Shown here in pieces: positions 137 to 24,367 of a stretch of DNA of 64,000 nt. The DNA comes from Candidatus Omnitrophota bacterium. Lineage in GTDB: Bacteria; Omnitrophota; Gorgyraeia; B26-G9. Below the pieces are notes generated by a model. It ran no database searches. It worked only from the letters and a program-made list of their open reading frames with translations, and was not told where the DNA came from. The DNA lies in the NCBI GenBank assembly GCA_016213925.1, contig JACQZH010000013.1, positions 14,034 through 78,033 on the forward strand, in the 5' to 3' direction. Position numbers and translations under genes: made by a program. Each line of letters opens with the position of its first letter. Position 1 is the first letter of the stretch.

Positions 137-1024
137 ATGATGCTCCAAAGTTTGAATGAAAAGTTGTCAAAATATGATGTGCCGTTATTTTTTCTGCTTG
201 CGGCTATCCTTATCGTGTCAAACTACCAAAGCAAAACAATGTTTGGGGTTGTCTTACTGGGAGGTTTTTATTTAATTGCCATGCCGCGGCTAATCTATCT
301 TTATTTGAAAGATAATAAAAACAGTTTCAAAAAGGTTATTTATATATATTTTATTATGATTTTTGTGCATGTGCATTTGACAACTCAGAGAGCTGATAGG
401 GCGGATAAAACCGAAGGGGCCGGCAACGAGCCTAAAAAAGTTTATAAAGTTTCCTTATCTTCCGAAGATAATATTCCGTTTTTGGAAAAACCGTATTTTT
501 ATAGCGGGATAAAAGTGCGGACTACGGAATTCAGTGAAGGCCGGAAGGTGGTTGATTGTTCCTTGGATGAGAAAAAATTATATTTTCAGTGCACTAAGAA
601 ATACAGTAACATAGAGAATTCTGATTTTTCTTTTTTGGTTACTTATTATCCGGAAATGATATCAGGCACTTCGAAGTTTACTATTGTTTTTCAGTTTACC
701 GATGAGATGGAAAGGGAACTGGGTTTTCTTACCTATGTTCTATACGGGGCAAGCGATTTTTATTTCCACGTCAACAATAAAGTCGAAGATAAGGTTTTCG
801 CGACTTATATTGTTGATCCTATAGAAGGAGAGTGGAAGACGTTTGAGGCAAAAAGCATAATCGATGACTATAACGCAAGGGCTAAACAATTGGAAGGCAA
901 GCTCTGGGCTGAGCTTAAGGTGAAAAAAATGAAATTAACGATAATGTCCTGGAATGCTGACGGAGAAATCATGAATGTTTATTTAAAAGGGTTGCAATTG
1001 CAGGAGCGTAAAAAGGAGCAATAG
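137..1024 (+). CDS. Bitopic membrane protein with a C-terminal copy of a novel ~130-aa domain (NSDFSF..YYP..LTYVLYG.SDYY..GEWK..DDYN..GKLW). The start is uncertain: the frame is open back to nt 2, so the gene may begin upstream of the window.
   Basis: ORF track 77..1024. The first in-frame ATG pair is at 137, preceded by an AAGGA at 127-131. A hydrophobic segment follows. The C-terminal domain aligns by eye with the two repeats at the end of the 977-aa protein (9752..12685). Confidence 0.5.
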   Translation: MMLQSLNEKLSKYDVPLFFLLAAILIVSNYQSKTMFGVVLLGGFYLIAMPRLIYLYLKDNKNSFKKVIYIYFIMIFVHVHLTTQRADRADKTEGAGNEPKKVYKVSLSSEDNIPFLEKPYFYSGIKVRTTEFSEGRKVVDCSLDEKKLYFQCTKKYSNIENSDFSFLVTYYPEMISGTSKFTIVFQFTDEMERELGFLTYVLYGASDFYFHVNNKVEDKVFATYIVDPIEGEWKTFEAKSIIDDYNARAKQLEGKLWAELKVKKMKLTIMSWNADGEIMNVYLKGLQLQERKKEQ

Positions 1025-1050
1025 AGAAAATTAATAAAATCGATGATTTT

Positions 1051-2052
1051 ATGCAGAAAAATCTGGATAATAAATTCAAAAACAAAAATATCTTAATAAC
1101 CGGTGGCTTGGGTTTTATCGGCAGTAATTTGGCGATAAAACTGGTTAATCTAGGGGCAAAAGTTACTTTGATGGACGCAATGCTTGCTGATTATGGGGCA
1201 AACAGGTTTAATATCGAGCCGGTAAAAGATAAAGTTAAAGTTGATGAAAGCGATATCCGCGACGCGGATTCGGTTAACAGGCTTGTTCAAGGTAAAGACT
1301 TTATATTTCATTTAGCAGGGCAGGTATCTCATGTTTTAAGCCTGTCTAATCCGTTTCTTGACATTGACATTAATATCAAGGGTACGGCAATGTTGATGGA
1401 AGCCTGCCGTAATTATAACAGGAGCGCGAAAGTAATTTATACTGGAACACGCGGCCAGTATGGAAGCGTCGTAAAACTGCCGGTAGATGAAACTACTCCG
1501 ACAAATCCAAAGGGAATTTATGAGATTTCAAACCTGACCGCGGAAAAGATTATTAAAGTTTACAATGATAACTTTGGCATAAAATGTGTGTTGCTCAGGC
1601 TGACCAATGTTTACGGGCCGCGTTCCCAAATGAAAAATGACCATTATGGGGTCGTGAACTGGTTTATGCGTTTAGCTCTTGAAGATAAAGAAATTAAGGT
1701 TTTTGGCGACGGCAAGCTAAAACGGGATTTCCTTTATGTTGACGATTGCGTGGATGCGTTAATAATGAGCGCGGCAAATGAGAATGCTTATGGTGAAATA
1801 TTCAATGTCGGCATAAATAAACCGACAACTTTTGTTGAATTGGCCGAGCTGATCGTTCAGATAGCGGGAAGCGGCAGGTGGGAATTCGCTCCTTTCTCCG
1901 CAGAAAGAAAAGCTTTGGAACCGGGAGATTATTATTCGGATATTTCTAAGATCAAGGAACATGTTACCTGGGAACCTAGAATTTCTCTTGCTGAAGGGAT
2001 AAAAGCATCGATTGGTTATTATCAAAAATACCGGACGCATTATTGGGAATAG
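1051..2052 (+). CDS. NAD-dependent sugar epimerase/dehydratase (extended SDR)
   Basis: N-terminal Rossmann motif ITGGLGFIGSNL. Its length and context in a glycan cluster fit a nucleotide-sugar epimerase/dehydratase. Confidence 0.75.
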   Translation: MQKNLDNKFKNKNILITGGLGFIGSNLAIKLVNLGAKVTLMDAMLADYGANRFNIEPVKDKVKVDESDIRDADSVNRLVQGKDFIFHLAGQVSHVLSLSNPFLDIDINIKGTAMLMEACRNYNRSAKVIYTGTRGQYGSVVKLPVDETTPTNPKGIYEISNLTAEKIIKVYNDNFGIKCVLLRLTNVYGPRSQMKNDHYGVVNWFMRLALEDKEIKVFGDGKLKRDFLYVDDCVDALIMSAANENAYGEIFNVGINKPTTFVELAELIVQIAGSGRWEFAPFSAERKALEPGDYYSDISKIKEHVTWEPRISLAEGIKASIGYYQKYRTHYWE

Positions 2053-2057
2053 AGAAT

Positions 2058-3020
2058 ATGAAAAAAATAAATATACTTGTCAGCGGAGTAAGCTCATCTA
2101 ATTCAATTACTTTTATAAAAGCATTGCGTAGACAGAAAGAAATTAAATTCAAAATTTTTGGAACTGATATTTATGAGAAAAACCTTTCGCAGGGTGCTTA
2201 TTTTTGTGATGGTTTTTTTAAGGTTTCAAAGGCAAATCAAAAAATGTTTATTCCCAAGTTATTGAAAATCTGCAAAGAAAATTCAATTAGAGTGCTGGTT
2301 CCGATTATTGAAGAGGAGTTTGCTTTAGTATCAAGAGCAACCGCTGAATTTAAAAAATGTGGTACTTTGGTTATGCTGCCTGATTCGAAAACGATACTAA
2401 TGTGTTTGAATAAGATAAAACTTTCCCGGTTTTTAGAAAAGCATGAATTCCCGACTCCTAAAATATACTTATCAGTGCCAGAAAGGAGCAGTTTTCCTTT
2501 AGTGAAAAAGCCGATTAAGGGCAGGGGGAGCAAGGGGATAAGCATAGTATACAGAAAAGAGGACATTAAACAGGCAAACCGTAATGATAAAAGCTGCTTT
2601 TTTCAGGAATTTATCAAAGGGCAGGAATACAGCGTGGATGTATTATCTGATAGAAGCGGAAAAGCAAAGGCGGTCTTTTGCCGGGTAAGATTGGAAGTAA
2701 GGGATGGTAAAAGCGTTAAGGCAATAACAGTGAGAAATAAAACAGTTGAGGATTTGGCGGTTAGGATCGCTGATGCTCTCGGCTTAAAGGGGCCTTCGTG
2801 CCTACAGTGTATTGTTGATAAAGACGGAGTGCCTTATTTTTTTGATGTTAATACAAGGATTGGCTCGGCTACTATTTTGACAGTTGAGGCAGGAGTAAAT
2901 ATCCCTTTTTTAGCGGTTAAAAGTTTGCTTGGCATGAAAATTGATAAATTAACCGGAAAGTTTAAAGAAAATATTATTATGCTGCGTTATCTTGATGAAA
3001 TTTTCACGCTGGTTGATTAA
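2058..3020 (+). CDS. ATP-grasp domain protein, a carboxylate-amine ligase-like enzyme in a glycan cluster
   Basis: ATP-grasp-like layout: N-terminal pre-ATP-grasp region, then the FPLVKKPIKGRGSKGI nucleotide-binding loop, then QEFIKGQEYSVDV. The start is either ATG 2058 or TTG 2043. Confidence 0.55.
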   Translation: MKKINILVSGVSSSNSITFIKALRRQKEIKFKIFGTDIYEKNLSQGAYFCDGFFKVSKANQKMFIPKLLKICKENSIRVLVPIIEEEFALVSRATAEFKKCGTLVMLPDSKTILMCLNKIKLSRFLEKHEFPTPKIYLSVPERSSFPLVKKPIKGRGSKGISIVYRKEDIKQANRNDKSCFFQEFIKGQEYSVDVLSDRSGKAKAVFCRVRLEVRDGKSVKAITVRNKTVEDLAVRIADALGLKGPSCLQCIVDKDGVPYFFDVNTRIGSATILTVEAGVNIPFLAVKSLLGMKIDKLTGKFKENIIMLRYLDEIFTLVD

Positions 3021-3034
3021 GGGGAAATATTTAT

Positions 3035-3703
3035 ATGAACATTTTTTTGGATTTTGACGGGCCTGTGCTTGATAACAAGGCTAGATTATATCAACTTTAT
3101 TTTGACCTTTTGGCCGAATTCGGCGGCAATCCTTTGCCTATCGATGAATATTGGCAGTTAAAAAGAAATTGTGTCAAAGAGGATGTAATATTAAAAGAAA
3201 AAAGCGGGTTTACCGAAGAGTTGAACGGAGATTATCAGAGGCTGCGTATTGAGCAAATTGAATCAAAGAGATATTTGAGCTTGAATGCGGTAATAAACGG
3301 TTGTTATGAGAGCCTTGACTTTTTGGCGAAACAAGGCGATTTGATGCTAATTACCAGCCGCAGGAACAGGGATAACCTTATCTGGGAGCTTAAAGATAAG
3401 AAACTTGAAAAGTATTTTAAAAAGATCCTATCGGATTTTAATGATTATCTGCCGGCTTGGCAGCTTAAGGTTGATTTAATACGAGAATTTATCCCTGAAT
3501 TCGGAAAAGCAGATATTATTGTGGGAGATACAGAAGCGGAGATTTTATGCGCAAAGGAGCTGGGGATTTATTCTATCGCTCTTTTGAGCGGAATCAGAAA
3601 TGAAGAAAAATTAAAATTATATGTTCCGGATATAATCTATGAGAATATAAATGAAGTTGTTAAAAATTGGACGCAGATTAAAACAAACGCGCAGAAGATA
3701 TGA
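3035..3703 (+). CDS. HAD-superfamily hydrolase/phosphatase
   Basis: N-terminal DxDGxV motif (FLDFDGPVLDN) and a downstream GDT..E motif, typical of a HAD phosphatase. Confidence 0.6.
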   Translation: MNIFLDFDGPVLDNKARLYQLYFDLLAEFGGNPLPIDEYWQLKRNCVKEDVILKEKSGFTEELNGDYQRLRIEQIESKRYLSLNAVINGCYESLDFLAKQGDLMLITSRRNRDNLIWELKDKKLEKYFKKILSDFNDYLPAWQLKVDLIREFIPEFGKADIIVGDTEAEILCAKELGIYSIALLSGIRNEEKLKLYVPDIIYENINEVVKNWTQIKTNAQKI

Positions 3704-4827
3704 AAAATATACTTTTTGTAGAGCTTTCCAGGGAATATAAGGCGCTAAGAAAAGAAATTGATTCAAAAGTGGCTAAGGTATTGGACTCTGGCCGTTTTTT
3801 GCTCGGGCCGGAATGCGCGAAATTTGAAGAAGCATTTGCCAAATATTGCGGAATTAAATTTTGTGTCGGGGTCGCTTCCGGGACAGAAGCAGTGGCATTG
3901 GCATTAATGGCATCAGGTACCGGGCATGGGGATTTGGTAATTACAGCAGCTAATACTGCGGTGCCTACTGTTTCGGCTATATCAATGAGCGGTGCAGAGC
4001 CTTTGTTTGTCGATATTGACGAAAAAACCATGTTAATGTCTCCGGAAAGTTTGCAAATCTGCTTAAAAAAGATGCCAAAGGCGATATTAAAGCGTATTAA
4101 AGCAATAATTCCTGTGCATCTTTACGGGCTTATGTGTGCGATGGATGAGATTAAGGCTATAGCTGATAAATATAAAATCGCTATTATAGAAGATTGCGCG
4201 CAGGCACACGGTGCGGAATATAAGGGTAAAAGAGCCGGTACTATAGGGATGTTTGGCTGTTATAGCTTTTATCCCAGCAAAAATCTCGGTTGTTACGGCG
4301 ACGGCGGTGCGGTTATTGTAGATAATACGAAATTATATGAAAAACTAACAATGCTTAGAAATTACGGGCAAACAGACAGGTATAACCATGAAATTATCGG
4401 TATTAACAGCAGGTTGAGCGAATTGCAGTCAGCGATATTGAACGTTAAACTTAAATATCTCGATGCTTGGAACGCAAGGCGCCGGTTTTTAGCGCAGATG
4501 TATACGAATGGGCTTAAAGATTATAATGTATGGTTTCAGGAATTCAGGCAACAGGAAAGATCGCATGTTTATCATCTTATGGTTTTGCGCAGCGATAAAA
4601 GGCAATCACTTGTAAAATATTTATCAGAGCAGGGCATCCACACGTTAATCCATTATCCTAGGCCGGTGTATTTGCAAAAGGCATACAGGAATATTATATA
4701 TAGAAAAAACAGCTGTAAAATTGCGGAGCGCACCTGCAAACAAATTTTCAGTATACCGCTTTATCCTTTTTTAAAAGATAAGGAAGCTAAATTTATAGTA
4801 GATAAATTAAGGAGGTTTTTAAAATGA
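3700..4827 (+). CDS. DegT/DnrJ/EryC1/StrS-family PLP-dependent sugar aminotransferase
   Basis: Family-typical N-terminus (LGPECAKFEEAFAKYCG..VGVASGTEAVALAL) and a length of about 375 aa. It overlaps its neighbours by 4 nt, indicating an operon. Confidence 0.85.
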   Translation: MKNILFVELSREYKALRKEIDSKVAKVLDSGRFLLGPECAKFEEAFAKYCGIKFCVGVASGTEAVALALMASGTGHGDLVITAANTAVPTVSAISMSGAEPLFVDIDEKTMLMSPESLQICLKKMPKAILKRIKAIIPVHLYGLMCAMDEIKAIADKYKIAIIEDCAQAHGAEYKGKRAGTIGMFGCYSFYPSKNLGCYGDGGAVIVDNTKLYEKLTMLRNYGQTDRYNHEIIGINSRLSELQSAILNVKLKYLDAWNARRRFLAQMYTNGLKDYNVWFQEFRQQERSHVYHLMVLRSDKRQSLVKYLSEQGIHTLIHYPRPVYLQKAYRNIIYRKNSCKIAERTCKQIFSIPLYPFLKDKEAKFIVDKLRRFLK

Positions 4828-5753
4828 CTACCTTAAGCATAATAGTGCCGGTTTTTTTTAATGAAGAAAGTCTTCCTTTGCTTTATGAAAAGCTTGAGCA
4901 GGTTTCGCGACAAATGAATAATGTGTGTTTTGAATATGTTTTTGTTGATGACGGCTCCAAAGATAATTCCTATAAGGTACTGCTGGATATTTCGAAAAGT
5001 GATAAACGTGTTAAAATTGTCAAGCTATCGCGCAATTTCGGTTCTTTTGTTGCCTGCTTTGCAGGGCTTACTTACGCAAAAGGCGATTGCGCTTTGATAA
5101 TGGCCGCGGATTTACAGGATCCTCCGGAATTGATCCCTGAACTTTTTAGTAAATGGCAACAAGGCAGTGAGGTGGTGTTTGCCGTTAAGCAAAAAAGGGA
5201 AGAAAGTAGTATGAATATTTTCTTTTCTTCGATATTTCACAGGATTTTTCGTCTTATCGCGTTGGGGAATGCTCCAAAACATGGATTTGATTTTGTTTTG
5301 ATCGGCAGAAAAGTAATTGATGTGCTGGTTAAATCAGGGGAGAAGAATTCTTCGATCATGGGGCAAATTATTTGGGCAGGATTTAAAACCGACCAGATAA
5401 GTTATACAAAGAAAGCACGCCTGCATGGTAAATCCCGCTGGAAATTCTGGACGAAAATAAAATATTTTATAGATTCAATAATGGCTTTTAGTTATTTCCC
5501 GATAAGAATGGCCTCATTTTTGGGTATTGGAATAGCTTTAATCGGTTTTATATTTGCTGTATATGCAGTCTACCGCAGGATTTTTTTTGGTGTTAATGTC
5601 CCGGGTTTTACGCTTTTGCTGGTTGTAATATTGCTGACCTCAGGCGCGCAAATGATTCTTTTGGGGATTATCGGCGAGTATATATGGAGAGCGCTTGATG
5701 AGGCAAGAAAAAGGCCTATTTTTATCGTAGACGAACTTATTAATAATGACTAG
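4824..5753 (+). CDS. GT2 polyprenyl-phosphate glycosyltransferase (ArnC/DPM1/GtrB-like) with C-terminal transmembrane helices
   Basis: Motifs IIVPVFFNEE, FVDDGSKDNS and LSRNFGSF, a DxD-type AADLQD, and two C-terminal hydrophobic helices. Confidence 0.85.
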   Translation: MTTLSIIVPVFFNEESLPLLYEKLEQVSRQMNNVCFEYVFVDDGSKDNSYKVLLDISKSDKRVKIVKLSRNFGSFVACFAGLTYAKGDCALIMAADLQDPPELIPELFSKWQQGSEVVFAVKQKREESSMNIFFSSIFHRIFRLIALGNAPKHGFDFVLIGRKVIDVLVKSGEKNSSIMGQIIWAGFKTDQISYTKKARLHGKSRWKFWTKIKYFIDSIMAFSYFPIRMASFLGIGIALIGFIFAVYAVYRRIFFGVNVPGFTLLLVVILLTSGAQMILLGIIGEYIWRALDEARKRPIFIVDELINND

Positions 5754-5816
5754 ATAGGATAATCCCAAATTTTGGGATAATAAATATAACTAATTTCTCT
5801 GAAGAAAGATAAGAAT

Positions 5817-7223
5817 TTGAATATTGCTTTGGTCTGGCCTTTTGGAAATGATTGCAACTGGGTTTTTCCAATGTCCATAGGGTTCCTTGAGGCTAATTTG
5901 CCTAAGGATAAGTTTAATACCTATGTTTTTGATTTTTCCCTGGAAAAAGTTAATCCGTATACGGAGAGAAAAAGATTAAAAACCTTTTTCGCGGATTTGG
6001 ATATAAATGTTTTTGGAATAAGCAGTGCCTTGTCTTTTAATTACCCTTATGCGCGTAAGACCGCTGAAATTATAAAAGAATTGATACCGCGGGCAAAAAT
6101 AGTCTTAGGCGGATGCCACGCGTCAATGACTGCATGTAAAATACTCGGAGAAAATGACAATATTGATTTTATATTAAAAGGAGAAGCAGAGTTTTCTTTC
6201 CCTGCATTGCTTGATTATTTTAAATCCAATTTATCGGAAGATGCTTTATCGCTGGTGCCGGGTTTAGTTTATAGGCGCAATAACAGCATTATGGAGAATC
6301 CTGCGGTTATTACTCAGGACTTAGACAGTATTAAGCCGGTTAATTACAGGAAAATGCGTTTAGAAGATTATGTCAAAGCCGGGTACCGTTACGGTACGAA
6401 TAATTTCGGTTTATCAGCGCCTTTGTGGATAAGCCGCGGCTGTCCTTACGGATGCACTTTTTGCTCGGCGTCGATTATGAACGGCAGAAAAGTCAGGTAC
6501 CACTCCATAGAATATGTAATCAAACTTATTAAGCATCTTTATGAGAAAGAAAATGTGAGAACGTTTACAATTATTGATGATAATTTCACGTTTGACCGTG
6601 CTTATGTTAAAAAATTCTGCTTTGAAGTAAAAAAACTCGGGTTTAAAGATATAAATATTGTTGCGCCTAACGGAGTGCGCATAGACAGGCTTGATCAGGA
6701 GACTTTAAAGCTGATGTATGAAGCCGGCTGGAGAGTCTTGATGGTTGCGATCGAAACGGATAATGAAAAAATAATGCAAAAAATGGATAAAAAGATCGAC
6801 CTTAAGGAAGTCCCCGGAAAAATTGCAATGATTAAAAGAGCAGGATTTAAGGTGCATAGCAATTTCATTTTAGGATTTCCCGGGGCATCCAGGGGAGATA
6901 TTAAGAAAACAATTGATTATGCCTGCCGTCTGGAGCTTGACATGGTTGGTTTCCCTAAATTTCAGCCTTTGCCTGGAACTAAGATGTTTGATGAGTTGTG
7001 TTCGAACGGAGAAATTGACGAGGATTTTCTGCCTGTTGAGTATAATGAAAAGTCTAAATATGCGCCAAAGGGAATAAAGACGCAAATGCTGGATAAGCTT
7101 CAGAGAAATGCGTATTTATTATTTTACCTGAGACATCCGGCTTCAATTTTGTTGTTGTTTGAGAATTATAGTATCAAGCATTTGCTCGGATATATAAGAA
7201 GAGTAATTATAGGAAAAAGTTAA
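5817..7223 (+). CDS. B12-binding-domain radical SAM enzyme (class B type), paralog 1
   Basis: CxxxCxxC motif (SRGCPYGCTFCS) preceded by a Rossmann-like B12-binding N-terminal region. The apparent start is TTG, and there is no in-frame ATG before the conserved N-terminus. Confidence 0.8.
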   Translation: MNIALVWPFGNDCNWVFPMSIGFLEANLPKDKFNTYVFDFSLEKVNPYTERKRLKTFFADLDINVFGISSALSFNYPYARKTAEIIKELIPRAKIVLGGCHASMTACKILGENDNIDFILKGEAEFSFPALLDYFKSNLSEDALSLVPGLVYRRNNSIMENPAVITQDLDSIKPVNYRKMRLEDYVKAGYRYGTNNFGLSAPLWISRGCPYGCTFCSASIMNGRKVRYHSIEYVIKLIKHLYEKENVRTFTIIDDNFTFDRAYVKKFCFEVKKLGFKDINIVAPNGVRIDRLDQETLKLMYEAGWRVLMVAIETDNEKIMQKMDKKIDLKEVPGKIAMIKRAGFKVHSNFILGFPGASRGDIKKTIDYACRLELDMVGFPKFQPLPGTKMFDELCSNGEIDEDFLPVEYNEKSKYAPKGIKTQMLDKLQRNAYLLFYLRHPASILLLFENYSIKHLLGYIRRVIIGKS

Positions 7224-7247
7224 GATTAACTTTGGAGTTTTTTTTGT

Positions 7248-8717
7248 ATGATTTTAGATAAAACAAAAGTGTTATTGATAGAACCTCCTCCTCTATGGAA
7301 ATACGGCAATCAGAGGTCTAAAGGAGCTTTCGGTAACCTTAAGACAGATATAAGATGGCCGCCGATCGATTTGATGGTTATTGCCGGATACCTTCGTAAA
7401 AATAATGTTGAAGTTGCGCTTATTGATGCCGGAGGAGAAAGGCTTATGATCGATAAGCTGGCAGAAAGCATATCGAACGTAGATGCCCGGCTGATCGTGA
7501 TTAATACTTCTACTACAACGATATATCATGATGTCAATATCGCAGAAAGAATAAAAAGAATCAAGCCGGCGGCTTTGGTAGGAGCAATCGGAGTTCATGT
7601 AATGGCATTGCCGGAAGAAACGCTAAAATTATCAGAGGGGTTGGATTTTGTCGTGGTTTCTGAGCCGGAAATTCCGATACTAAATCTGGCGAAAATCCTG
7701 GACTTGCCCGGAACCAAGGGTATTTGTTATCTGAAAAACAGTCAAATAATAAAAAATTTACCTGAGTCCCCGATTTCTAATCTGGATGAACTGGGAATGC
7801 CGGCGCATGATCTGGTGCCTTTGAATATATATAAAGAACCGCAGCTTAAAAGAAAGCCGATGACAATTACTATGGTCTCACGCGGTTGTATAAATAGGTG
7901 TATTTTTTGCAGTGCCTGTTTTTATGGTGATTACAGGTTGCGTTCGATTTCTAATGTTATGGAAGAACTAAAATGGATAAGCAGTGAACTAGGGGTAAAG
8001 GAGTTGAAATTTTATGACGATGGGATCACCTATAACCGTAAATGGGCAGTGAGCTTGTTTCAGGCAATGATTGATGAGAAAATTGACTTAACCTGGAATA
8101 CTAATCTCCGCGCGGATTCTATTGATTTGGAACTGGCTCAACTGATGAAAAAAGCAGGCTGCCATACGGTGAATATGGGGCTGGAAAGCGCTAATCAGGA
8201 TATTTTAAACAACATTAAAAAAAATGTTACGTTGGAAAAAATGGAGCAAGCTGTTAAATATTGCAAGCAAGCGGGATTAGAGGTTTGCGGGTATTTTGTT
8301 ATTGGTTTACCAGGGGAAACATTGGAAACTGTTAATCAGACTGTGGAATTTGCAAAACGGCTTGACTTGGACCTGGCTACTTTTAATGTGACGGCGCCAC
8401 ACCCCGGAACGGAATTTTTTGACTTTTTGCAGAAAAAAGGGTTTCTGAAAACTAAGAATTGGGAAAAATATGATACAAACAGCCTGCCTGTGTATGATTA
8501 TCCCAAAATGAGCGCGCAGGATATTTATAGCCTTGCGTTAAAGGCATACCGGCATTTTTATATGAGGCCGGGTTATTTTTTAAAAAGGCTTAAAAGAGTG
8601 AATTCCTTGCTGGAAATGAAAAATCTGGCAGAAAATTTTTTTGCGTTTATGGAAAATTTTATTATTAAAAGCGTAGCAAGGGATGTAATTGCTATTTTTA
8701 AAATGGAGAAGAAATGA
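7248..8717 (+). CDS. B12-binding-domain radical SAM enzyme, paralog 2
   Basis: CxxxCxxC motif (SRGCINRCIFCSA). The N-terminus KVLLIEPP is typical of the B12-binding domain. It is a clear paralog of the upstream gene. Confidence 0.8.
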   Translation: MILDKTKVLLIEPPPLWKYGNQRSKGAFGNLKTDIRWPPIDLMVIAGYLRKNNVEVALIDAGGERLMIDKLAESISNVDARLIVINTSTTTIYHDVNIAERIKRIKPAALVGAIGVHVMALPEETLKLSEGLDFVVVSEPEIPILNLAKILDLPGTKGICYLKNSQIIKNLPESPISNLDELGMPAHDLVPLNIYKEPQLKRKPMTITMVSRGCINRCIFCSACFYGDYRLRSISNVMEELKWISSELGVKELKFYDDGITYNRKWAVSLFQAMIDEKIDLTWNTNLRADSIDLELAQLMKKAGCHTVNMGLESANQDILNNIKKNVTLEKMEQAVKYCKQAGLEVCGYFVIGLPGETLETVNQTVEFAKRLDLDLATFNVTAPHPGTEFFDFLQKKGFLKTKNWEKYDTNSLPVYDYPKMSAQDIYSLALKAYRHFYMRPGYFLKRLKRVNSLLEMKNLAENFFAFMENFIIKSVARDVIAIFKMEKK

Positions 8718-9733
8718 AGAAAAAAGATTTATCTTTTTTTTACTGCCGCAGTTGTAATAAATCACTTGAAATAAAAGTAATTGATTCAAAAGCAGATGAT
8801 GTGCAAGAAGGAATTTTCAGCTGCTCTGGTTGCGGCCAGTGGTATCCGCTGACAGAGAGAATAGGGTTCTTTCTGAAAAATGATTACTCTTTTGCTGAAG
8901 AATTCAGGCAGAGGTTTGTGAAGAGGCATGCCTTAAAATTGGAAAATAAGAATTGTGACAGCGAGCAGTTATCTATTAAAGAAAAAAATAAGCAAATTGA
9001 ATTTTTTAATATTGAATCAGATTGTTATACCTATGTACATACTATGAGCCAATTTGTCCGGCTTTTAGATGCGCAGTTACTTAAGTTCTGGGGGCAATAT
9101 ATTCTTGAAAACGGTGTGATCATTGATCTGGGCTGTGGGACAGGGATGAGGACTTTGCCTTTGGCAGGGCAGTATACAAACAGTAATATAATCGGAGTTG
9201 ATATTTCAATAGGTATGATCCGTGTGGCGTTGAAGCATGCCCAAGATAAGGGATTAAATAATATTAGTTTTATTGTTGCTGACGCAGATAATCTTCCATT
9301 TGCCGCTGAAATTACTGAAACAGTTATCGGCCCAGGCATATTGCATCATGTGCCGGAACCTAAAGCTGTACTAAGGGAGGCGCAAAGGGTTTTAAAAACA
9401 AACGGATGTTATCTGGGAATTGAAAACAACCGGTCTGTTTTTCGTTTTGTTTTTGACTTTCTTCAGAAAATAAAACCTGCCTGGAGAGAGGAAGCGGGAA
9501 GGCATCCTTTGATTTCTGTTGAAGAGTTAATAAGATGGGGCAAGGAAGAGTTATTGGAGATTAGTGCTCATTCGCGTGTATTCCTTCCGCCGCAGCTAAT
9601 TAATAGTTTATCTTTGAATATGGCGGAAAAAGTTTTTAATTTTTCTGAAAATACAGGGCGATGGTTGCCGTTTATCCGCAATCATGGAGGGATGCTTTTT
9701 ATTCAGGGGAGAAAAATCGTTTCTCGCGATTAA
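8714..9733 (+). CDS. Class I SAM-dependent methyltransferase with an N-terminal Trm112-like zinc ribbon
   Basis: CxxC..CxxC (CRSCN..CSGCGQWYP) followed by motif I IIDLGCGTGMRT. A 4-nt overlap with the upstream radical SAM gene couples them. Confidence 0.75.
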   Translation: MKKKDLSFFYCRSCNKSLEIKVIDSKADDVQEGIFSCSGCGQWYPLTERIGFFLKNDYSFAEEFRQRFVKRHALKLENKNCDSEQLSIKEKNKQIEFFNIESDCYTYVHTMSQFVRLLDAQLLKFWGQYILENGVIIDLGCGTGMRTLPLAGQYTNSNIIGVDISIGMIRVALKHAQDKGLNNISFIVADADNLPFAAEITETVIGPGILHHVPEPKAVLREAQRVLKTNGCYLGIENNRSVFRFVFDFLQKIKPAWREEAGRHPLISVEELIRWGKEELLEISAHSRVFLPPQLINSLSLNMAEKVFNFSENTGRWLPFIRNHGGMLFIQGRKIVSRD

Positions 9734-9751
9734 AAATACAATTATCGGATT

Positions 9752-12685
9752 ATGAGTGCACAGAGGAAAAGAGTATTTAGTTTGTCTTTGGCGGGTCTAT
9801 GTTTGGCATGGATAATTTATGTTAGTTTTTTTGTGCGGCATGGATTGAGCCTGACTGATGCGGGATTAATATGCGCCCAATCATGGAGATTTTACTTGGG
9901 TGATATTCCTTTTAAAGATGTTTTTTGCATCCCGGTAAGTTTGTCGGATTACTTTTTAAGCATAGTCTTTGTAGCATACCCTGATTGCGGATTGCTGGCT
10001 TTGAGAATTATCTGGGCAATAATATTATTTATAGCGATTGCTTTTTCATACAAAATTATAACCAGGTTTTATTCCGTTTATCTGGCATTTCCGGCAATGA
10101 TATGCTCGTTAAGTATATTTGCCATGCATGGAATTGACTTGCCGGGTTATAATAATACCCCAGAGATGTTTTTTATTATTTCAATATTTTTACTGTTTTG
10201 GTCACTTTGTTCAAACCATAAGCAGAAAATATTTATTTATGGCGTTCTTTCCGGGTTTGCTGCGTTTACAGCTGTTTTGTGTAAGGTCACTTATCTTCCC
10301 ATAGCCGGGATTGGTTTTATTTGCCTGTTAGTTTCACTATTGATTAAATCAGAGGTAAAAAAACACATTTTGTGCGCATCGCTGATTTTTACGATGACTT
10401 TTTTTGTAAGTTTAGCAGCGTTCCTGATATTTTTATACGTAAACGGATTGTTCGAAGAGTTTTTGATGGATTTTCGTGTGCATACCCAAGGGGGTGCTTA
10501 TTCTTCAATTATTATTTCCGGATTGTTTGGAAAAGGAAGTATTTTTTTGTTAAAGGCATTACCTCTGGTTATATCATGTATTTTTTTTAATCTAGTTTGT
10601 GGTTATTTTTTGCGGAAAAAAATGATTTTTTTACGGATAGGATGTCAAGCCATACTTGTATGTTTGTTTTATTTATTTTTTCTGCGTATGTTTTCTTTTC
10701 CTGGATATTTTATTTATGGATATGCTTATGCTTTGCTAGGCGTAGGAATAATTTTGTATTGGAAAAATATCTTTGAAGAAAAAGATAAAGATATAATTGT
10801 AACTAATCAATTAAAAATAATATTACTTTTGCTGGCAGGATTTCTGCAGTGGCTGTGTACGCTTTATTCGAGCCATGGGATATACACTTCTCATAAAGGG
10901 ATGTTTTTAAGCCTGCCGCTGGCCTGGATAATATCCTGGGAATTGCCGGTATACATTAAAAAAGCGGGGCAATTAAATAAGAAAGAATTACTATCCTATC
11001 GAATAGTAATTCTGGTTTTTGCGCTTATTATTGCGTTTTATGCATTTGGTTTTAAATTAAAACACCCTTATCTGGATAGTCCTGACCGATCTGAACTATG
11101 CGTTGCGTTCAAAACAAAAAAGCTTAAGGGGATTTTTTCAACTAAAAAACATGTAGAGATAATAGACCGTTTAACTGAGTTTATGGGGACGAGGATAAAA
11201 AGAGGCGAGTATCTGCTTACTTATATAAATTTGCCGATGATCAGCTTTTTACTGGAGGCGCGTCCGGCAACAAGGATTACCTGGTTTTCCGGGATATCCA
11301 ATCCTCTGGATAAGCCGGCTGTGGAAGATTTGAAGAAAACCAAGCCGAAATTTGTTATACGCACTCACCAGTATATGTGTTCAAATACCTGGCCTGATAA
11401 GGTTAACCTTTTACTGGATGCGCCTGGGTCTGAAGTTTTTTACGTAGATAATTATGTGCAGGCAAACTACGAGCTTGTAAATAAGATTGATGCTTTTGAG
11501 ATTTTGCAGAGAAATGATGAATATTTTAATGAAGAATTAAATATTGATAATAAAATCAGCTTTTTTGAACAGGATTTTTACGTTAAGAATGATAAACATA
11601 AATTTAAAATAAATGATTTTTTCGGAGAAAAGGCGTATGATTTTTCGGTTTCAGGGAAGCGTATGGTATATAAAAACTGTTATAAATTTTTTAAAAATGC
11701 AGGTAATTCTGATTTTTCTTTTAAGCTTAAATACTATCCTCAAAGATTAACAGGATTTGCTGATTTTAATGTGCGTTTTAAGGCGCTGACTTATGTGCTT
11801 TATGGCCGGGCAGATTATTATTATCCGGCCAATGAGATAATTGACGGAAAAGTTTATGCTTGCCGGATAATTGAGCCGCAATTTGGACATTGGAAAGAAT
11901 TACGCGTGGATTCTATTGTGGCAGATTATGAAAAGATAAGCAGGCAGTTGCAAGGGCCGTTATATGATGAGATGGAAATATCCCAGGTTATGGTTTCGCT
12001 TAATTCCAGAGCAGGCCAGGATTCTTCGATTTTGGTGTATCTTGCTGATTTTAATGTAGTTGAGAATAATGTTGACTATGCAAGGATAGATAATGCTATC
12101 AAAAATGCATCAGTATATAGCCAATATGGGATCATTTTATTTAATAAAAGGCATTATGTTGATAATAAGGTGATGGAAAGATGTGTGCAACAGTTTGAAA
12201 AAGAGAATGTAATCCGGTTTTCTGAACCAAGGCTAGAAGGGCAGTTGGTTTTTACCAAGGAATATCAAAATGCGGACAATAGTTATTTTTCTTTTCAAAC
12301 GGAATATTTTCCTGAAAAATTACAAGGCATAACCAAATTTAACCTGCAGTTTGAACTTTTGGATAATAGCTCAATTCCTGTAGGGAACTTAACTTATGTA
12401 TTATATGGCAAGAGCGATTATTATTGTAACGTAAATCAAAAGATTAACGGAAATATTTTTGCAACCTATATAATAAATCCTCAGCAGGGAGAATGGAAAA
12501 ATTTAGTTGTCAATTCGCTTACAGACGATTATAATAATATTTCTACTCGGCTGGGGGGGAAGTTATGGCAAGAATTAAATATAAGTAAAATAAAAGTACT
12601 GTTGTTTTCTTTTGGTACGCAACAGCCGGATGATGAGATGTCAGTTTGCCTTAAGAGGTTGGAAATAAAGAAGAACCAACGTTAG
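9752..12685 (+). CDS. Large membrane protein: an N-terminal polytopic domain of about 450 aa, then two tandem copies of a novel ~130-aa domain
   Basis: Many hydrophobic helices in the N-terminal half. The C-terminal repeats (about 11676..12070 and 12260..12640) share NSxFSF..YYP..LTYVLYG.(A/S)DYY..GxWK..DYxxIS..L.G.L(Y/W). The same domain occurs at the C-terminus of the first gene in the window. Confidence 0.7.
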   Translation: MSAQRKRVFSLSLAGLCLAWIIYVSFFVRHGLSLTDAGLICAQSWRFYLGDIPFKDVFCIPVSLSDYFLSIVFVAYPDCGLLALRIIWAIILFIAIAFSYKIITRFYSVYLAFPAMICSLSIFAMHGIDLPGYNNTPEMFFIISIFLLFWSLCSNHKQKIFIYGVLSGFAAFTAVLCKVTYLPIAGIGFICLLVSLLIKSEVKKHILCASLIFTMTFFVSLAAFLIFLYVNGLFEEFLMDFRVHTQGGAYSSIIISGLFGKGSIFLLKALPLVISCIFFNLVCGYFLRKKMIFLRIGCQAILVCLFYLFFLRMFSFPGYFIYGYAYALLGVGIILYWKNIFEEKDKDIIVTNQLKIILLLLAGFLQWLCTLYSSHGIYTSHKGMFLSLPLAWIISWELPVYIKKAGQLNKKELLSYRIVILVFALIIAFYAFGFKLKHPYLDSPDRSELCVAFKTKKLKGIFSTKKHVEIIDRLTEFMGTRIKRGEYLLTYINLPMISFLLEARPATRITWFSGISNPLDKPAVEDLKKTKPKFVIRTHQYMCSNTWPDKVNLLLDAPGSEVFYVDNYVQANYELVNKIDAFEILQRNDEYFNEELNIDNKISFFEQDFYVKNDKHKFKINDFFGEKAYDFSVSGKRMVYKNCYKFFKNAGNSDFSFKLKYYPQRLTGFADFNVRFKALTYVLYGRADYYYPANEIIDGKVYACRIIEPQFGHWKELRVDSIVADYEKISRQLQGPLYDEMEISQVMVSLNSRAGQDSSILVYLADFNVVENNVDYARIDNAIKNASVYSQYGIILFNKRHYVDNKVMERCVQQFEKENVIRFSEPRLEGQLVFTKEYQNADNSYFSFQTEYFPEKLQGITKFNLQFELLDNSSIPVGNLTYVLYGKSDYYCNVNQKINGNIFATYIINPQQGEWKNLVVNSLTDDYNNISTRLGGKLWQELNISKIKVLLFSFGTQQPDDEMSVCLKRLEIKKNQR

Positions 12686-12708
12686 TTAAATTTAAAAATG
12701 AGAATTAA

Positions 12709-13887
12709 ATGAAAAGTGAACTATTGCTTTTAACCCGCAATTTTTATCCGACAATAGGCGGGGTTGAAGTTTATATTCTGGAGTTTATTAAGTTTTTTAC
12801 GGCAAAAGGCAGGGGAAAAATCCATGTATTATGCCCCAAAAAAAGTGCTTTGCCAGATGAACTTAAAAACGGGCATGTTTATTTATATTCTCCAAAAAGT
12901 AATTTTACTTTTTTCGAGATAGATCATGTTTTAACGGGGATAAAGGCTTATTTTCAAATAATTATTTTTTTTGTTATTTTTTTTATTCAGGGAAGCGGAT
13001 TCCTGCTTAAAAAAAACAATAAAATTAAGGTAATATATGCGGTCGGCGGAATAGTAGCTATTATGTCAGCTTTGGCCTTGGGCAGGATATTCGGCAAAAA
13101 AATATTCGGGCATATGCATGCTGATTTTCAGTTTTCCCAGTTTCCAAAGTTGTGGAAGGATTTTTATAAAAAGATTTTTTCGGGCTTGGATAAGGTCTTT
13201 GTTAACTCCCGGGACGGCAAAATCGATTTGGAAAAAATAGGGGTGGACAAAACAAAGATTGAAATAATAGATAACTGGGCTGATGGGAGCATATTTGAGT
13301 TAAAAGACAAAGAAAGCTGCCGAAAGGCTTTGAAGTTGCCCTTAGATAAAAAGATCTTTTTGTTTGTAGGCAGGCTGTCTTTTGAAAAAGGCATTAATGA
13401 GGTTTTGGATTGTATTGAGCAGTATAGAAATAGAGAGGATATTTTTTTTGTTATTATCGGTGACGGCCATTTGAAAGAGAAGGTATTCAATTGCATTAAA
13501 GATAATAAACAGGCTGTTTATGCCGGTTCGAAAAAAACAAAAGAACTCGTGGATTACTATAATGCTGCGGATGCTGCTTTATGGGGGTCGATTGATACAT
13601 ATTATATATCGATTACTATGATAGAAGGCTTTCATTGCGGGCTGCCGGCATTATGTCCAAAGGGCACAACCAATGTGCCTAAATGGGGAAAGAAAGAATT
13701 TGAGATTAAAGACGGGGTTCTCCCTGATTTTGCCGGAATATTATTTGAAAGCAGTGCTAAGGGGTTGTCTGAGGCAATAGAAAAGTTCTTAAAAATGAAA
13801 TTTGACAGCAAAAAAATTAAAGAATATGCGCTAATGAAATATTCCGAAAAGAACGCAGAACGTATCGTAGAGGAGATGTTTTCTTAA
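12709..13887 (+). CDS. GT4 (GT-B fold) glycosyltransferase
   Basis: N-terminal LLLTRNFYPTIGGVEVYI, a typical GT4 start. The C-terminal half has an E-x7-E-like region. Length is about 390 aa. Confidence 0.75.
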   Translation: MKSELLLLTRNFYPTIGGVEVYILEFIKFFTAKGRGKIHVLCPKKSALPDELKNGHVYLYSPKSNFTFFEIDHVLTGIKAYFQIIIFFVIFFIQGSGFLLKKNNKIKVIYAVGGIVAIMSALALGRIFGKKIFGHMHADFQFSQFPKLWKDFYKKIFSGLDKVFVNSRDGKIDLEKIGVDKTKIEIIDNWADGSIFELKDKESCRKALKLPLDKKIFLFVGRLSFEKGINEVLDCIEQYRNREDIFFVIIGDGHLKEKVFNCIKDNKQAVYAGSKKTKELVDYYNAADAALWGSIDTYYISITMIEGFHCGLPALCPKGTTNVPKWGKKEFEIKDGVLPDFAGILFESSAKGLSEAIEKFLKMKFDSKKIKEYALMKYSEKNAERIVEEMFS

Positions 13888-20329: not shown

Positions 20330-22504
20330 ATGAAAAATGCGAAAAACTTTTTTATCATTCTAATCTTAGCCTGCATCTTTTCTTTTTTTTATACTTGGAT
20401 GGCAGTGCGGGAGTTTAGCCCCTTTCAGGCGAAGTACAATGATGTTCCTGCTAAGTTGGATTTTGAGCTTCCGGCTAAGGATGTTTACCTGCTTAAAGTG
20501 AAAACTGAAGATGAATTACCAGAAATCAGTGTTAATGGGTATGTTTTAAAGAGTTTTTCCGAAAAAGCCTATAATAATGTTTTTATTAAAATCATTCCGC
20601 AGAATGCTGCCTTGAAAGGAGTAAACCGCCTGGTTGTTAAAGGCAGGGGCGATAAAAATGCGGATAAGCTTATTACTAAACTGAAAATCTCAAATTATTT
20701 GGCGAAAGATTCATCCGGCGGATTTCTGCTTTTGGCAGGGGCGCCGGTTCTTAGTCAATATCTCACAAGTAAAATAATTTTTTCCATTTTACTTGTATTG
20801 GTGATGGGAATAATTATCTTGGTGCTTAAATCAAATTTGGAGATTTTCAAGGTGCATGCTTTTGAATATAGGAAAAAATATTTGCTGCTTTTTTTATTCT
20901 GGTTTTCCGGTTTTACGGCAATGAGTGTTGTGCCTGCATTTTATAAGCTCAGGATAGCTTTTTATTCCGGCTCTTTCTTGAAGTTCAATATTTGTTATAT
21001 TCTTTTTATCGGTATGTTTTTATTTTTCCGGGTTGTATTTACAGCTTTTAAAAATTGGATTAAGTTTATCGGGCATAAGCTCAAAGAATGCGGTTCAGGG
21101 AAGGAAGATGATAAAGATGATTATAGTTACAGATCTTTGACCAGGGATATTATCCCGCAGGCTTTCTTGGCGGTTAAGGGCGCAAAAGGTTATCAGTGGA
21201 TAATCGCGGCGGTTGTTATTATTAATGTAGTGCTTAAAATTCATTTTATTGCCTCTAATTCAAAAGTGTTTTACCCTCCGGGAGGGGATGCAGCAGGGTT
21301 TGATTACTGTGCTGAACATCTGTTGAGCTGGTTTTTCAGCCCTGAAATGGTACGGCCTCCGGTCTACATATTCTTTTTAAAATTCATATATTTTTTAATT
21401 GGCATATTCCGGCTTGAAAAATTACCTGCGGTATATTTTGCCCACTGTTTGCTGGATGTCGGAACAATGCTTGCGGCGCTTTCCATGATTGAGATAATTT
21501 TCATAAAACTGAAGGCGAGGAACCTGTTAAAAATAACTTATGCTGTTTGTTATACTTTGTACTTTCCGTTTATAATTAATAGCGCGGCTATATTAAGGGA
21601 AACTTTGAATAATTTTCTCACGGCTTTGTTTTTGGTTTTTTTATTGAGATTTCATGTCGCGGAGGAAATGATGGTGAAACTGAAAATTGCAGGCAGGAAA
21701 GTTTCTTGTAATCTTAAAACGGGCTATCTTTTTACCGCGGCATTTTTTTTTACCATGACGTATCTTAACCGTGAGGATAATTTTTTGTATTTATTTTTTA
21801 TTTTGCCGTACTTTTGGTACCTGCATTTTTTTAAAAAACAAAACGGCTTTGGGAAAAAGGCGGTATTCTTTCTCGCGGTTATCGCGTTATTTAATCTGCC
21901 GTGGTTATTGCGCAATATTGTTTTTTCCCGCGAGTTTGTATGGCTTACAAAGCAAGGCGGCCTTAGCATTGCGCTTGGGCATATGTATGATTATCCTATC
22001 TTTGATGATCTGCGATGCCCTTACCTAAGTGATATGGCTGCTTCTTTTGCTGAAAAAAATGAACAATCCGGCAGTGGAATCAAAGCGGCTTTTTATTTTG
22101 TTAATCAATTATGGGCAAATCATACTTTTTGGGAAGTTTTTAAATTTTATATGACTAAAATTATAAATATGTTTAAAATTGCGCTTATCCTGTGTATATA
22201 TCCGATAAATCTGGGTTTCTACACCATATATACGACATTTATTAATGTTACGCATACGGTATTTTTAAGATTTTTTATTATATCTTGGCCGATATTATTT
22301 ATATACCGCAGGTTACTAAATCCTTGTATTATTTATGTTATTTTCATTTTCGCGCTTAAAATCTTAATGGCTTTGATGATGTTCGGATGCCCCAGGTATG
22401 CGTTTAATATGATTCCATATATGATTTTATTTGCGTGTTTTGCAATGTATATGCTGGTTGCAATGTTTGGGAAACTACTTAAAGTTTTGGGAAGAATAGT
22501 ATAA
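20330..22504 (+). CDS. Polytopic membrane protein (724 aa), candidate glycan polymerase or GT-C-like enzyme
   Basis: A signal-anchor, then a soluble segment of about 120 aa, then more than 10 hydrophobic helices. No soluble-enzyme motifs recognised. Confidence 0.5.
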   Translation: MKNAKNFFIILILACIFSFFYTWMAVREFSPFQAKYNDVPAKLDFELPAKDVYLLKVKTEDELPEISVNGYVLKSFSEKAYNNVFIKIIPQNAALKGVNRLVVKGRGDKNADKLITKLKISNYLAKDSSGGFLLLAGAPVLSQYLTSKIIFSILLVLVMGIIILVLKSNLEIFKVHAFEYRKKYLLLFLFWFSGFTAMSVVPAFYKLRIAFYSGSFLKFNICYILFIGMFLFFRVVFTAFKNWIKFIGHKLKECGSGKEDDKDDYSYRSLTRDIIPQAFLAVKGAKGYQWIIAAVVIINVVLKIHFIASNSKVFYPPGGDAAGFDYCAEHLLSWFFSPEMVRPPVYIFFLKFIYFLIGIFRLEKLPAVYFAHCLLDVGTMLAALSMIEIIFIKLKARNLLKITYAVCYTLYFPFIINSAAILRETLNNFLTALFLVFLLRFHVAEEMMVKLKIAGRKVSCNLKTGYLFTAAFFFTMTYLNREDNFLYLFFILPYFWYLHFFKKQNGFGKKAVFFLAVIALFNLPWLLRNIVFSREFVWLTKQGGLSIALGHMYDYPIFDDLRCPYLSDMAASFAEKNEQSGSGIKAAFYFVNQLWANHTFWEVFKFYMTKIINMFKIALILCIYPINLGFYTIYTTFINVTHTVFLRFFIISWPILFIYRRLLNPCIIYVIFIFALKILMALMMFGCPRYAFNMIPYMILFACFAMYMLVAMFGKLLKVLGRIV

Positions 22505-24367
22505 ATGAAGTTGGAATTTTCAGAAAAAAAACTTGATTTTGTCCTGATGCTGGCGATATTTTTTATTGCTTGCCTGATAGTTTTTTCTAATCTTGGCATC
22601 AAATATTCGTTTGTCGGTGATGATCCTGGTGTGTCAATGCAGTTTCTTGAAGGCGTGAACAGATATGATTGCTACCTCTGGAATGAGTATGTGGGTGCCG
22701 GAGCTCCTTTGCCCAGCGGGGTCCAGTCATTAGCCTGGAATACCTTATTAAGGGTTATTGGGTTATTCGTTGCGCAAAAATTTATAATCCGCATTATGAG
22801 TATTTTATTTTTTAGCTTATGCGGAATGTCAATGTATTATCTTGTGCATATGATATCAAAGACAGAAGGCATGATGCGTAAAGACACGCGTTTTTTAAAA
22901 CTGGGGGCTTTTATCGGCGCGCTTGTTTATATGATGAACCATCTAATTATGATTTTGCTGAATTTTCCTTTGTCGAAATTGCAGTTTCCTTATTGCATAT
23001 ATCCATTTATTATTGCGTTGTTTATTTATGCATTACATAAGCCGATGCCTTTTTATAAGATTTTTATTTCAGCAATGCTTTTATTAATATTATTTTGCGG
23101 GAATCCAGCAAACATGGTAGTTATTTTTAATATTTTACTTCTATATTTTATATATTTTATTTTTATTAAAACAGGGGCAAAGGAACAGTTGTTTCGAAAA
23201 CTAGCTGTATTTTTATGTGTTACGGTATTGTTCTTGTTGTTTACTGCTTTTATATGGCTGCCTACTTTGCTGTTACCTCTTTATGGAGAGGCTTTGGCAA
23301 AAGTGGATAATGCTAATTTTTTAAATGATGTTAGTTTTAACAGCCATCGAAGCTCGTTTTTATCCTTGTGGCGGTTGGACGGTTATATGTGTTTTCTAAA
23401 TTTTCCTTTTGCCGGCCAATACTATTCCAATGCTTTTTTGGTATTTTTGGGGTTTGCGGTTTACACGCTTTTACCTTTTAGCGTGCTTTTGTTTTTTCGG
23501 AAAAGCCGGTTTATTAATTATTTTGTTTTTGTTTATTTAATGTTTCTTTTTTTTGCAAAGGGAACGTATCCGCCGGGAAGAGTAGTTTTTGAATGGGTTT
23601 TTATCCATGTGCCGTATTTTGCCATGTTTAAATCGCAGTACATAAAATTGATTGTAGTGCCGGTAATATTAGGAGCGGTTTTCAGCGGTTTTTCCTCTGC
23701 GAAAATTTTATCCGAGTCGCCGAAATCTTATTTACGTTTTTTTATTGGTTTGGTTGCGATGATAATCGGATATAATCATATTTTTGTCGATGGAAGCTGG
23801 AATTATAAGTCTTTTTTGACGGAAATCCCCGCGGATTATCAGCAAACAGCCGATTTTATAAATTCGCTTGGCGGTAATAAAAGGATACTAATGTGCCCTG
23901 AGACTTCCGGTTTTCAGATTTCCGGCTGGAAAAAGGAAGATGAGACCTGGGCCAGGCATCATCTGAATGATTATCAGCAGATGTATGTTGGGGGATTGAT
24001 ACATCCGTATGTGTTCAATAAACCTTGTTTGAATATGTGGTATTTTAAAAAGTATTTTTCTTCGGAGGAGAATGCGGAATTCCCATACTTATTTCCTTCG
24101 ATATTTTTAAGGCTTAAGTACTATGATGTGGGGTATATATGCCTTGAAAAGAGTTTTTTGGATGAATATAACGGCGGATTTGGCTGCGGCAATATGATAT
24201 TAAACGGCTATAAAAAATATCAGGATTATAAGGAAATATTAAAAAAAACTAATGGCTTGGCCCTGGTTTTGGATACGCCTAACTGGTCGGTATATAAGAT
24301 TTCCGATGACATGACTTGCGCAAAAATTTATTCCAGCTATGAGGATGAGTTGTATAACACCAAGTAG
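22505..24367 (+). CDS. Polytopic membrane protein (620 aa) with a C-terminal extracytoplasmic domain
   Basis: Its start codon immediately follows the upstream stop. Many transmembrane helices are followed by a soluble C-terminal domain of about 200 aa. Confidence 0.5.
   Translation: MKLEFSEKKLDFVLMLAIFFIACLIVFSNLGIKYSFVGDDPGVSMQFLEGVNRYDCYLWNEYVGAGAPLPSGVQSLAWNTLLRVIGLFVAQKFIIRIMSILFFSLCGMSMYYLVHMISKTEGMMRKDTRFLKLGAFIGALVYMMNHLIMILLNFPLSKLQFPYCIYPFIIALFIYALHKPMPFYKIFISAMLLLILFCGNPANMVVIFNILLLYFIYFIFIKTGAKEQLFRKLAVFLCVTVLFLLFTAFIWLPTLLLPLYGEALAKVDNANFLNDVSFNSHRSSFLSLWRLDGYMCFLNFPFAGQYYSNAFLVFLGFAVYTLLPFSVLLFFRKSRFINYFVFVYLMFLFFAKGTYPPGRVVFEWVFIHVPYFAMFKSQYIKLIVVPVILGAVFSGFSSAKILSESPKSYLRFFIGLVAMIIGYNHIFVDGSWNYKSFLTEIPADYQQTADFINSLGGNKRILMCPETSGFQISGWKKEDETWARHHLNDYQQMYVGGLIHPYVFNKPCLNMWYFKKYFSSEENAEFPYLFPSIFLRLKYYDVGYICLEKSFLDEYNGGFGCGNMILNGYKKYQDYKEILKKTNGLALVLDTPNWSVYKISDDMTCAKIYSSYEDELYNTK

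Follow-up and report, generated by a model that had tools for sequence, protein, structure and literature searches.

Periplasmic carbohydrate-binding modules (CBMs) at the C-terminus of GT-C glycosyltransferases serve as a precedent for acceptor binding next to a membrane enzyme, with GT136 ORF12, EmbA/B and AftD as examples (PMC11127046). In EmbC of M. tuberculosis, the C-terminal domain has two sugar-binding sites, and mutating them lowers arabinan extension (PMC3044687). For ORF12 of Citrobacter youngae, the GT136 report states that the C-terminal CBM binds the unmodified O-polysaccharide and is dispensable under the conditions tested, and that the partner genes of GT136 encode a polyprenyl-phosphate sugar synthase and a GT-C enzyme (PMC11127046). 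Here we describe a domain with a similar placement, found in a stretch of 64,000 nucleotides (the window) of a Candidatus Omnitrophota bacterium (assembly GCA_016213925.1, contig JACQZH010000013.1, positions 14,034 to 78,033 of the forward strand). Three diverged copies of this domain exist on two membrane proteins encoded in the window, p977 and p295, and we consider the chances somewhat better than even that the domain is a non-catalytic, CBM-like accessory module, holding a glycan beside a membrane enzyme in the periplasm.

The gene of p977 is an open reading frame (ORF) of 977 amino acids (aa) at nt 9752..12685 (NCBI HY810_02345, there 960 aa long; P0005 in the protein database), and that of p295 (295 aa, about three membrane helices followed by one domain copy) lies at nt 137..1024 and is identical to P0001, NCBI HY810_02300, which carries the name 'MAG: hypothetical protein HY810_02300 [Candidatus Omnitrophica bacterium]'. 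Both genes are on the + strand, as are all features given below for the window unless stated. Copy 1 (p977 aa 596-782, nt 11537..12097) was delimited by the envelope of a hidden Markov model (HMM) and by BLASTP, copy 2 (p977 aa 801-977, nt 12152..12682) by BLASTP and HMM, and copy 3 (p295 aa 107-295, nt 455..1021) by BLASTP, HMM and alignment. In BLASTP comparisons, p295 aa 126-293 matched p977 aa 817-977 with 41.5% identity (E = 3e-36) and p295 aa 107-290 matched p977 aa 596-771 with 31.6% identity (E = 3e-26), and the two p977 copies were 40.7% identical to each other over 140 aa (E = 1e-32). A chance or low-complexity repeat is ruled out by these pairwise E-values of 1e-26 to 1e-36, and the similarity noticed in a preliminary description of the window, made by eye from the sequence, survives alignment statistics. 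The consensus pattern given there is also borne out, as it agrees with the 40 invariant columns in the alignment of all three copies (A1). The three copies on two proteins were seen correctly in that description, and the third one was rightly placed at the C-terminus of the first gene of the window; their size was underestimated. Each repeat unit measures about 180 aa (175-190 aa) instead of about 130 aa, the tandem copies occupy the last ~380 aa of p977, including a linker of about 20 aa, instead of the last 260 aa, and the third copy extends over nt 455-1021 instead of about nt 600-1000. The strongly conserved core is formed by the C-terminal two thirds of the unit, starting with NS.FSF at aa 652 in copy 1, aa 843 in copy 2 and aa 161 of p295 in copy 3, and this is also the portion common to the distant homologs (profile positions ~58-175). 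At the nucleotide level the copies are 57-60% identical, indicating that the duplications are old. No fourth copy was found by an HMM scan of the whole 64-kb window in six frames with narrow and broad profiles, nor were further copies found in the related loci that were scanned.

The domain is a very rare sequence family without a name. Searches of Pfam-A and NCBIfam gave nothing above noise for p977, p295 or the isolated copies (the best Pfam matches below cut-off were DUF4367, E = 0.085, and SecE, E = 0.2; NCBIfam gave none), and profile searches of PDB chain sequences gave chance matches only (E >= 0.23). No match to a well-known Pfam domain therefore contradicts the earlier impression that the repeat belongs to no named family. 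A word-indexed search of 5.8 billion protein clusters with the three-copy profile returned only four proteins, P0001 (p295 itself), P0002, P0003 and P0004, all of the p295 type with about three helices and one copy. By an exhaustive HMMER search with a five-sequence profile, 27 proteins were detected among 1.84 billion representatives at E <= 1e-3, 6 of them at E <= 1e-10; P0021 and P0023, two of the weakest matches, look like spurious repeat matches. The close profile had no match in GTDB genomes or JGI metagenomes, and the CotH-type profile detected one locus, in a metagenome-assembled genome of the Pontiellaceae (L004, which encodes P0007). The motif of the distant matches reads K-x4-F-x-F-x-D ... 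LTYVL-x-G-x-x-D-x-W-x3-N ... Y-x-T ... G-x-W ... IL-x-D-x-N-x-x-A ... W, and the near-invariant residues of the family are, in p977 numbering, K862, G886, D889, N895 and T905. Only these K, G, D, N and T columns are nearly invariant across the 27-sequence alignment.

Structure prediction of one repeat, an analysis that the preliminary description had proposed, was performed on copy 2 by AlphaFold2 with a five-sequence alignment. The model (mean predicted local distance difference test score, pLDDT, 81.7; predicted template modelling score, pTM, 0.80) contains eleven strands and one helix at copy aa 123-134, and the domain is predicted with good confidence to be a beta-sandwich jelly roll with one helix. 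Foldseek returned 23 matches against the PDB at E <= 1e-3, among them glucanases and xyloglucanases of glycoside hydrolase family 12 (GH12), the jelly roll of birnavirus VP2 and the CBM28 structure 1uww. The GH12 enzymes (e.g., 2jem, 3amn and 1olr) were the best matches, with a template modelling (TM) score of 0.57-0.60 when normalised by the query, a root mean square deviation (rmsd) of 5-8 Å and E ~3e-4, and they appear to share with the model a two-sheet beta-jelly roll with one helix. CBM28 belongs to the same general fold class, is comparable in size (179 aa) and likewise sits on carbohydrate-active proteins as an accessory, but its TM score is only 0.37, with an rmsd of 9.9 Å, and there is no sequence or HMM relationship.

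As the top matches are endoglucanases and xyloglucanases in which the single helix is likewise packed on the sheet, and as D889 and N895 are nearly invariant, the domain itself might be catalytic, a GH12-like or ConA-like glycoside hydrolase, transglycosylase or lyase with the task of trimming or remodelling periplasmic glycan. Catalysis by GH12 enzymes requires a pair of Glu residues, a nucleophile and an acid/base. No Glu is conserved across the 27-sequence alignment, however; in the 'GEWK' motif, copy 1 has His in place of the Glu, and the position varies elsewhere. The repeat domain is also shorter than GH12 by 40-90 residues (~180 aa against 220-270), shares 8-13% identity with it and occurs as appended copies, tandem or accessory, instead of forming an enzyme core; two tandem copies and a stand-alone anchored copy make a CBM-like, not an enzyme-like, pattern. 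A catalytic role of the domain is consequently very improbable in our estimation.

The domain might, alternatively, be a diverged member of an existing family, either CBM4_9/galactose-binding-like or Laminin_G_3/ConA-like, that lies beyond the reach of HMMER, in which case it would not be new. One family member does have a weak Laminin_G_3 match (E = 0.019); the sequences of distant members open with 'NGSFE.G...W', and 'Y(I/L)DDV.(L/V)' closes some of them, features that we take to be typical of CBM4_9-like modules and that we treat as a lead only. Against such an origin, Pfam scans of each of the 27 members revealed no recurring family even at E <= 10, the profile search of PDB sequences was empty but for the chance matches mentioned above, and CBM4/CBM22-type structures were absent from the top 50 Foldseek matches, so that we hold this explanation to be decidedly unlikely.

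Partner domains of the HMMER matches were assigned by Pfam scans. In proteins of ~1400 aa with CotH and a right-handed beta-helix (P0007, P0009, P0012, P0013, P0016, P0020 and P0025), the domain is N-terminal, right behind the anchor; it stands at the C-terminus of the PMT_2 GT-C enzyme P0010, internally in the YfhO-like protein P0018, after a GH89 NAGLU_C fragment in P0008 and near the N-terminus, behind an anchor, in the GDSL esterase P0011. P0014 (189 aa), P0019 (201 aa), P0022 (318 aa) and P0024 (331 aa) have no partner and consist of a signal peptide or anchor plus the domain. The recurrence in different architectures, together with the modelled beta-sandwich, agrees with the CAZy notion of a CBM as a discrete, independently folding, non-catalytic module, and the association is of the CBM type, with PMT_2, YfhO-like, NAGLU_C (GH89), GDSL and beta-helix partners and with loci that are glycan clusters. 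P0010 comes closest to p977, with a polytopic N-terminus followed by the same domain family at the C-terminus (HMMER E = 1.8e-10), but it carries a single copy where p977 carries two, the PMT_2 model (PF13231) matches its membrane part above the Pfam cut-off whereas that of p977 matches nothing, and hhalign gives a probability of 0.3% for the two N-termini. P0010 belongs to another glycan cluster (L005), with GT2 glycosyltransferases and methyltransferases; at 6001-10098 of that locus, a PMT_2 paralog (674 aa) without the domain comes after P0010 (675 aa), and at a nearly equal length this paralog must have something else as its C-terminal ~130 aa.

Copy number does vary among homologs, a point raised in the preliminary description: it is two in p977 and one everywhere else, with the pair in P0006 set aside as a likely artefact. 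P0006 (1472 aa) starts in the middle of a domain, and its first ~133 residues are identical, letter for letter, to residues ~909-1041. The start within a domain and the identity of the copies make a contig wrap-around or assembly duplication probable, rather than a genuine second copy.

Such a domain might also act in protein-protein interaction or as a structural spacer or scaffold, for example by docking to an envelope component or to itself, and bind no glycan. The jelly roll is used by viral capsid proteins as well, which are among the Foldseek matches; the small anchored p295 family adjoins large membrane proteins and is probably co-translated with them; and conserved residues are few, with no clear aromatic cleft identified. 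The proteins on which the domain recurs, however, have other parts that serve to make glycans or to act on them (PMT_2, YfhO-like, a GH89 fragment, GDSL and beta-helix), a pattern more typical of CBMs than of a dedicated docking module, and we judge the scaffold explanation unlikely.

The CBM-like role that we favour requires the domain to lie outside the cytoplasm. Topology was estimated from hydropathy, counts of Lys and Arg (K/R) and the positive-inside rule. As far as aa 436, p977 shows 13-14 hydrophobic segments, which make up a polytopic membrane domain with an orphan sequence (aa 1-437, nt 9752..11062), and a soluble region without assignment (aa 438-595, nt 11063..11536) separates the last membrane helix from copy 1. 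The N-terminus, MSAQRKR, is rich in K/R, and the loop at aa 403-417, preceding the last helix, holds 5 K/R, which by the positive-inside rule would place the tail (aa 437-977) in the periplasm. A count back from this last helix gives 13 helices if the segment at aa 57-75 is assigned to a long first loop in the periplasm, which is the reading we prefer. In p295, hydropathy gave membrane segments at aa 10-28, 35-53 and 64-82, and the loop before helix 3 (aa 54-66) is K-rich, indicating that its tail is probably outside too. The extracytoplasmic position proposed earlier is thus inferred for both proteins from the K/R-rich loops, and it agrees with the distant homologs, in which the domain follows a signal peptide or anchor; the term 'polytopic', which had been applied to both, is right for p977 and generous for p295. 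For p295, the ATG at nt 137, chosen by NCBI and lying just downstream of AAGGA, which resembles a ribosome-binding site, is a better start call than the TTG at nt 77 in the mechanical ORF list (315 aa; the frame is open back to nt 2), and with this start the first gene of the window is complete.

GT-C enzymes have 11-13 membrane helices, a cytoplasmic N-terminus, a periplasmic C-terminal domain and an acidic catalytic residue in the first periplasmic loop. In p977, the number of segments, the K/R-rich N-terminus and the K/R-rich last loop are consistent, by hydropathy only, with this layout. An Asp, D36, is found in 'LSLTDAG', about 10 residues past helix 1, and may be a counterpart of this acidic residue. 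By position and topology p977 is a candidate GT-C enzyme, and its membrane part is suspected to be a GT-C-type glycosyltransferase. PgfS/ArnC-type enzymes, in turn, make polyprenyl-phosphate sugars, which are consumed outside the cytoplasm by GT-C enzymes (see also PMC11127046). Just upstream of p977, together with an ArnB/PseC-like aminotransferase, lies a GT2 gene (nt 4824..5753; Pfam Glycos_transf_2) whose product is similar over its full length to PgfS (NCBIfam, 5.5e-62) and ArnC (4.4e-49), both scores being under the equivalog cut-offs. This GT2 probably makes the lipid-linked donor for a periplasmic GT-C enzyme, and its presence leads us to expect a GT-C partner in the cluster.

We propose that the domain would bind the growing or finished surface glycan as acceptor in the periplasm, and present it to an enzyme embedded in the membrane, whose modification of the glycan would take place outside the cytoplasm. 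The tandem pair of p977 is fused behind a membrane domain of about 13 helices, a putative GT-C enzyme that would use a polyprenyl-phosphate-linked sugar, and the donor would come from the nearby ArnC/PgfS-like GT2. p295 and its orthologs, with a single copy anchored by about three helices, would operate in trans, with neighbouring polytopic proteins of the membrane as partners. The domain occurs in three modes, as a tandem fusion (p977), as a single fusion (P0010, P0018 and P0027) and as a separate anchored subunit (the p295 family). Glycan binding itself is inferred from the model and from the partners.

This arrangement resembles the described systems in several respects. As in Emb, AftD and GT136, a polytopic protein ends, beyond its last membrane helix, in beta-rich sequence on what would be the periplasmic side; the two domain copies of p977 parallel the two carbohydrate-binding sites of EmbC, of which each subdomain has one; and, as with GT136, a gene for an enzyme of the polyprenyl-phosphate sugar synthase kind, the ArnC/PgfS-like GT2, lies upstream. 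Differences are also evident. There is no sequence similarity to Emb or AftD, the searches of PDB chains, a library that should hold any deposited Emb and AftD chains, having stayed at chance level (E >= 0.23). The CBM of GT136 is described as immunoglobulin-like (PMC11127046), whereas the p977 domain is, by model, a larger jelly roll with a helix. In addition, no match to any GT-C family was obtained for the membrane part of p977.

Several results weigh against the proposed accessory role and its GT-C context. The membrane part of p977 has no match in Pfam, NCBIfam or PDB sequences, and word-indexed searches of the 5.8 billion protein clusters with p977, whole and N-terminal, returned only p977 itself, so that aa 1-595, with no relative and no family model, form a true orphan membrane domain. 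Compared by hhalign with the PMT_2 and YfhO-like proteins of this study, this part gave probabilities of at most 1.6%, and a single-sequence AlphaFold2 model of full p977 was unusable (pLDDT 35.5). The structural matches of the domain are weak and generic for jelly rolls (E ~1e-4 to 1e-3, 8-13% identity). The five near-invariant residues provide no obvious aromatic sugar platform, and they may equally well be structural or metal ligands. Finally, relatives of the CotH type bear the annotation of a kinase-like family, and not every partner is therefore a classic carbohydrate-active enzyme.

A bolder combination of these ideas, which we put forward as possible though doubtful, is that p977 would be the sole known member of a new GT-C-type family, as GT136 was when first described, and the domain the founder of a new CBM family. 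In the same combination, this CBM would recognise specifically an unusual glycan, perhaps one with amino or methyl modifications, made by Omnitrophota and related bacteria of the Planctomycetes-Verrucomicrobia-Chlamydiae (PVC) group, the tandem pair would serve processive or multivalent capture of the acceptor, and the p295 family would be a detachable, substrate-presenting subunit for other GT-C-like enzymes. What is new here is the sequence family without a name; fold class, placement and likely role are familiar, and no current concept is challenged. If glycan binding is confirmed, a new CBM or Pfam family could be based on the domain, which would mark extracytoplasmic glycan-modifying machinery in poorly known lineages (Omnitrophota, Kiritimatiellota and relatives), and would be one more case of an emerging rule, by which GT-C enzymes of the periplasm capture the acceptor via appended beta-sandwich modules. 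The domain is, moreover, a handle on two orphan membrane proteins otherwise beyond annotation.

Judged by its genes, the whole window is a one-strand glycan-synthesis cluster. It encodes a 4,6-dehydratase/epimerase, an ATP-grasp enzyme, a HAD hydrolase and the ArnB/PseC-like aminotransferase, then the GT2, two B12-binding radical S-adenosylmethionine (SAM) enzymes, a methyltransferase, p977 and a GT4 glycosyltransferase, and further nucleotidyltransferases, GT2s and methyltransferases. The two B12-binding radical SAM enzymes (5817-7223 and 7248-8717) are located between the ArnC/PgfS-like GT2 and the SAM methyltransferase, and their closest NCBIfam similarity is to HpnJ, far under the cut-off; this pair hints at an unusual radical modification, e.g., C-methylation, of a sugar or lipid-linked intermediate.

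A syntenic cluster (L001) contains P0002, the ortholog of p295, between a p724-like and a p620-like gene. The end coordinate of P0002, 10900, falls on the start of the p620-like gene at 10897, an overlap that suggests coupled expression. The p620-like protein of L001 has 851 aa, of which the first ~615 match p620 and ~235 are extra C-terminal residues. In the window, p724 (20330-22504) and p620 (22505-24367) are adjacent polytopic proteins without a Pfam or NCBIfam match, and their L001 counterparts (8659-9993 and 10897-13452) are 38% and 48% identical to them. The p620 family is weakly related (hhalign 62%) to the YfhO-like proteins p822 (32717-35185) and p841 (35225-37750), tandem paralogs of 822 and 841 aa that are 41% identical. 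Their polytopic N-termini share 36-38% identity with a protein of L001 that bears the annotation YfhO. At their C-termini they carry DUF3108 (E = 1e-16 and 2e-13), which parallels the design of p977, a putative membrane enzyme with a C-terminal beta domain, with an unrelated domain. By hhalign, a relationship of the repeat domain to DUF3108, to the C-termini of p620 and the 851-aa L001 protein or to the p724 N-terminus was rejected (probability <1%), and the membrane part of p977 proved unrelated, in the comparisons made, to p620, p724, p822/p841, P0010, P0018, P0027 and the L001 protein L001-927.

At the Pontiellaceae locus L004, VTC-domain and DUF4956 genes come immediately after the gene of the 1400-aa CotH and beta-helix protein with the distant domain (779-6427 for the whole group); our literature search found no paper combining CotH, VTC and DUF4956. 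Across the window (1-64000), almost every long ORF runs on the + strand. GC content is 34-41%, each 2-kb bin has a positive GC skew (0.16-0.30), and the strand bias and skew are consistent with one very long co-oriented glycan cluster on the leading strand.

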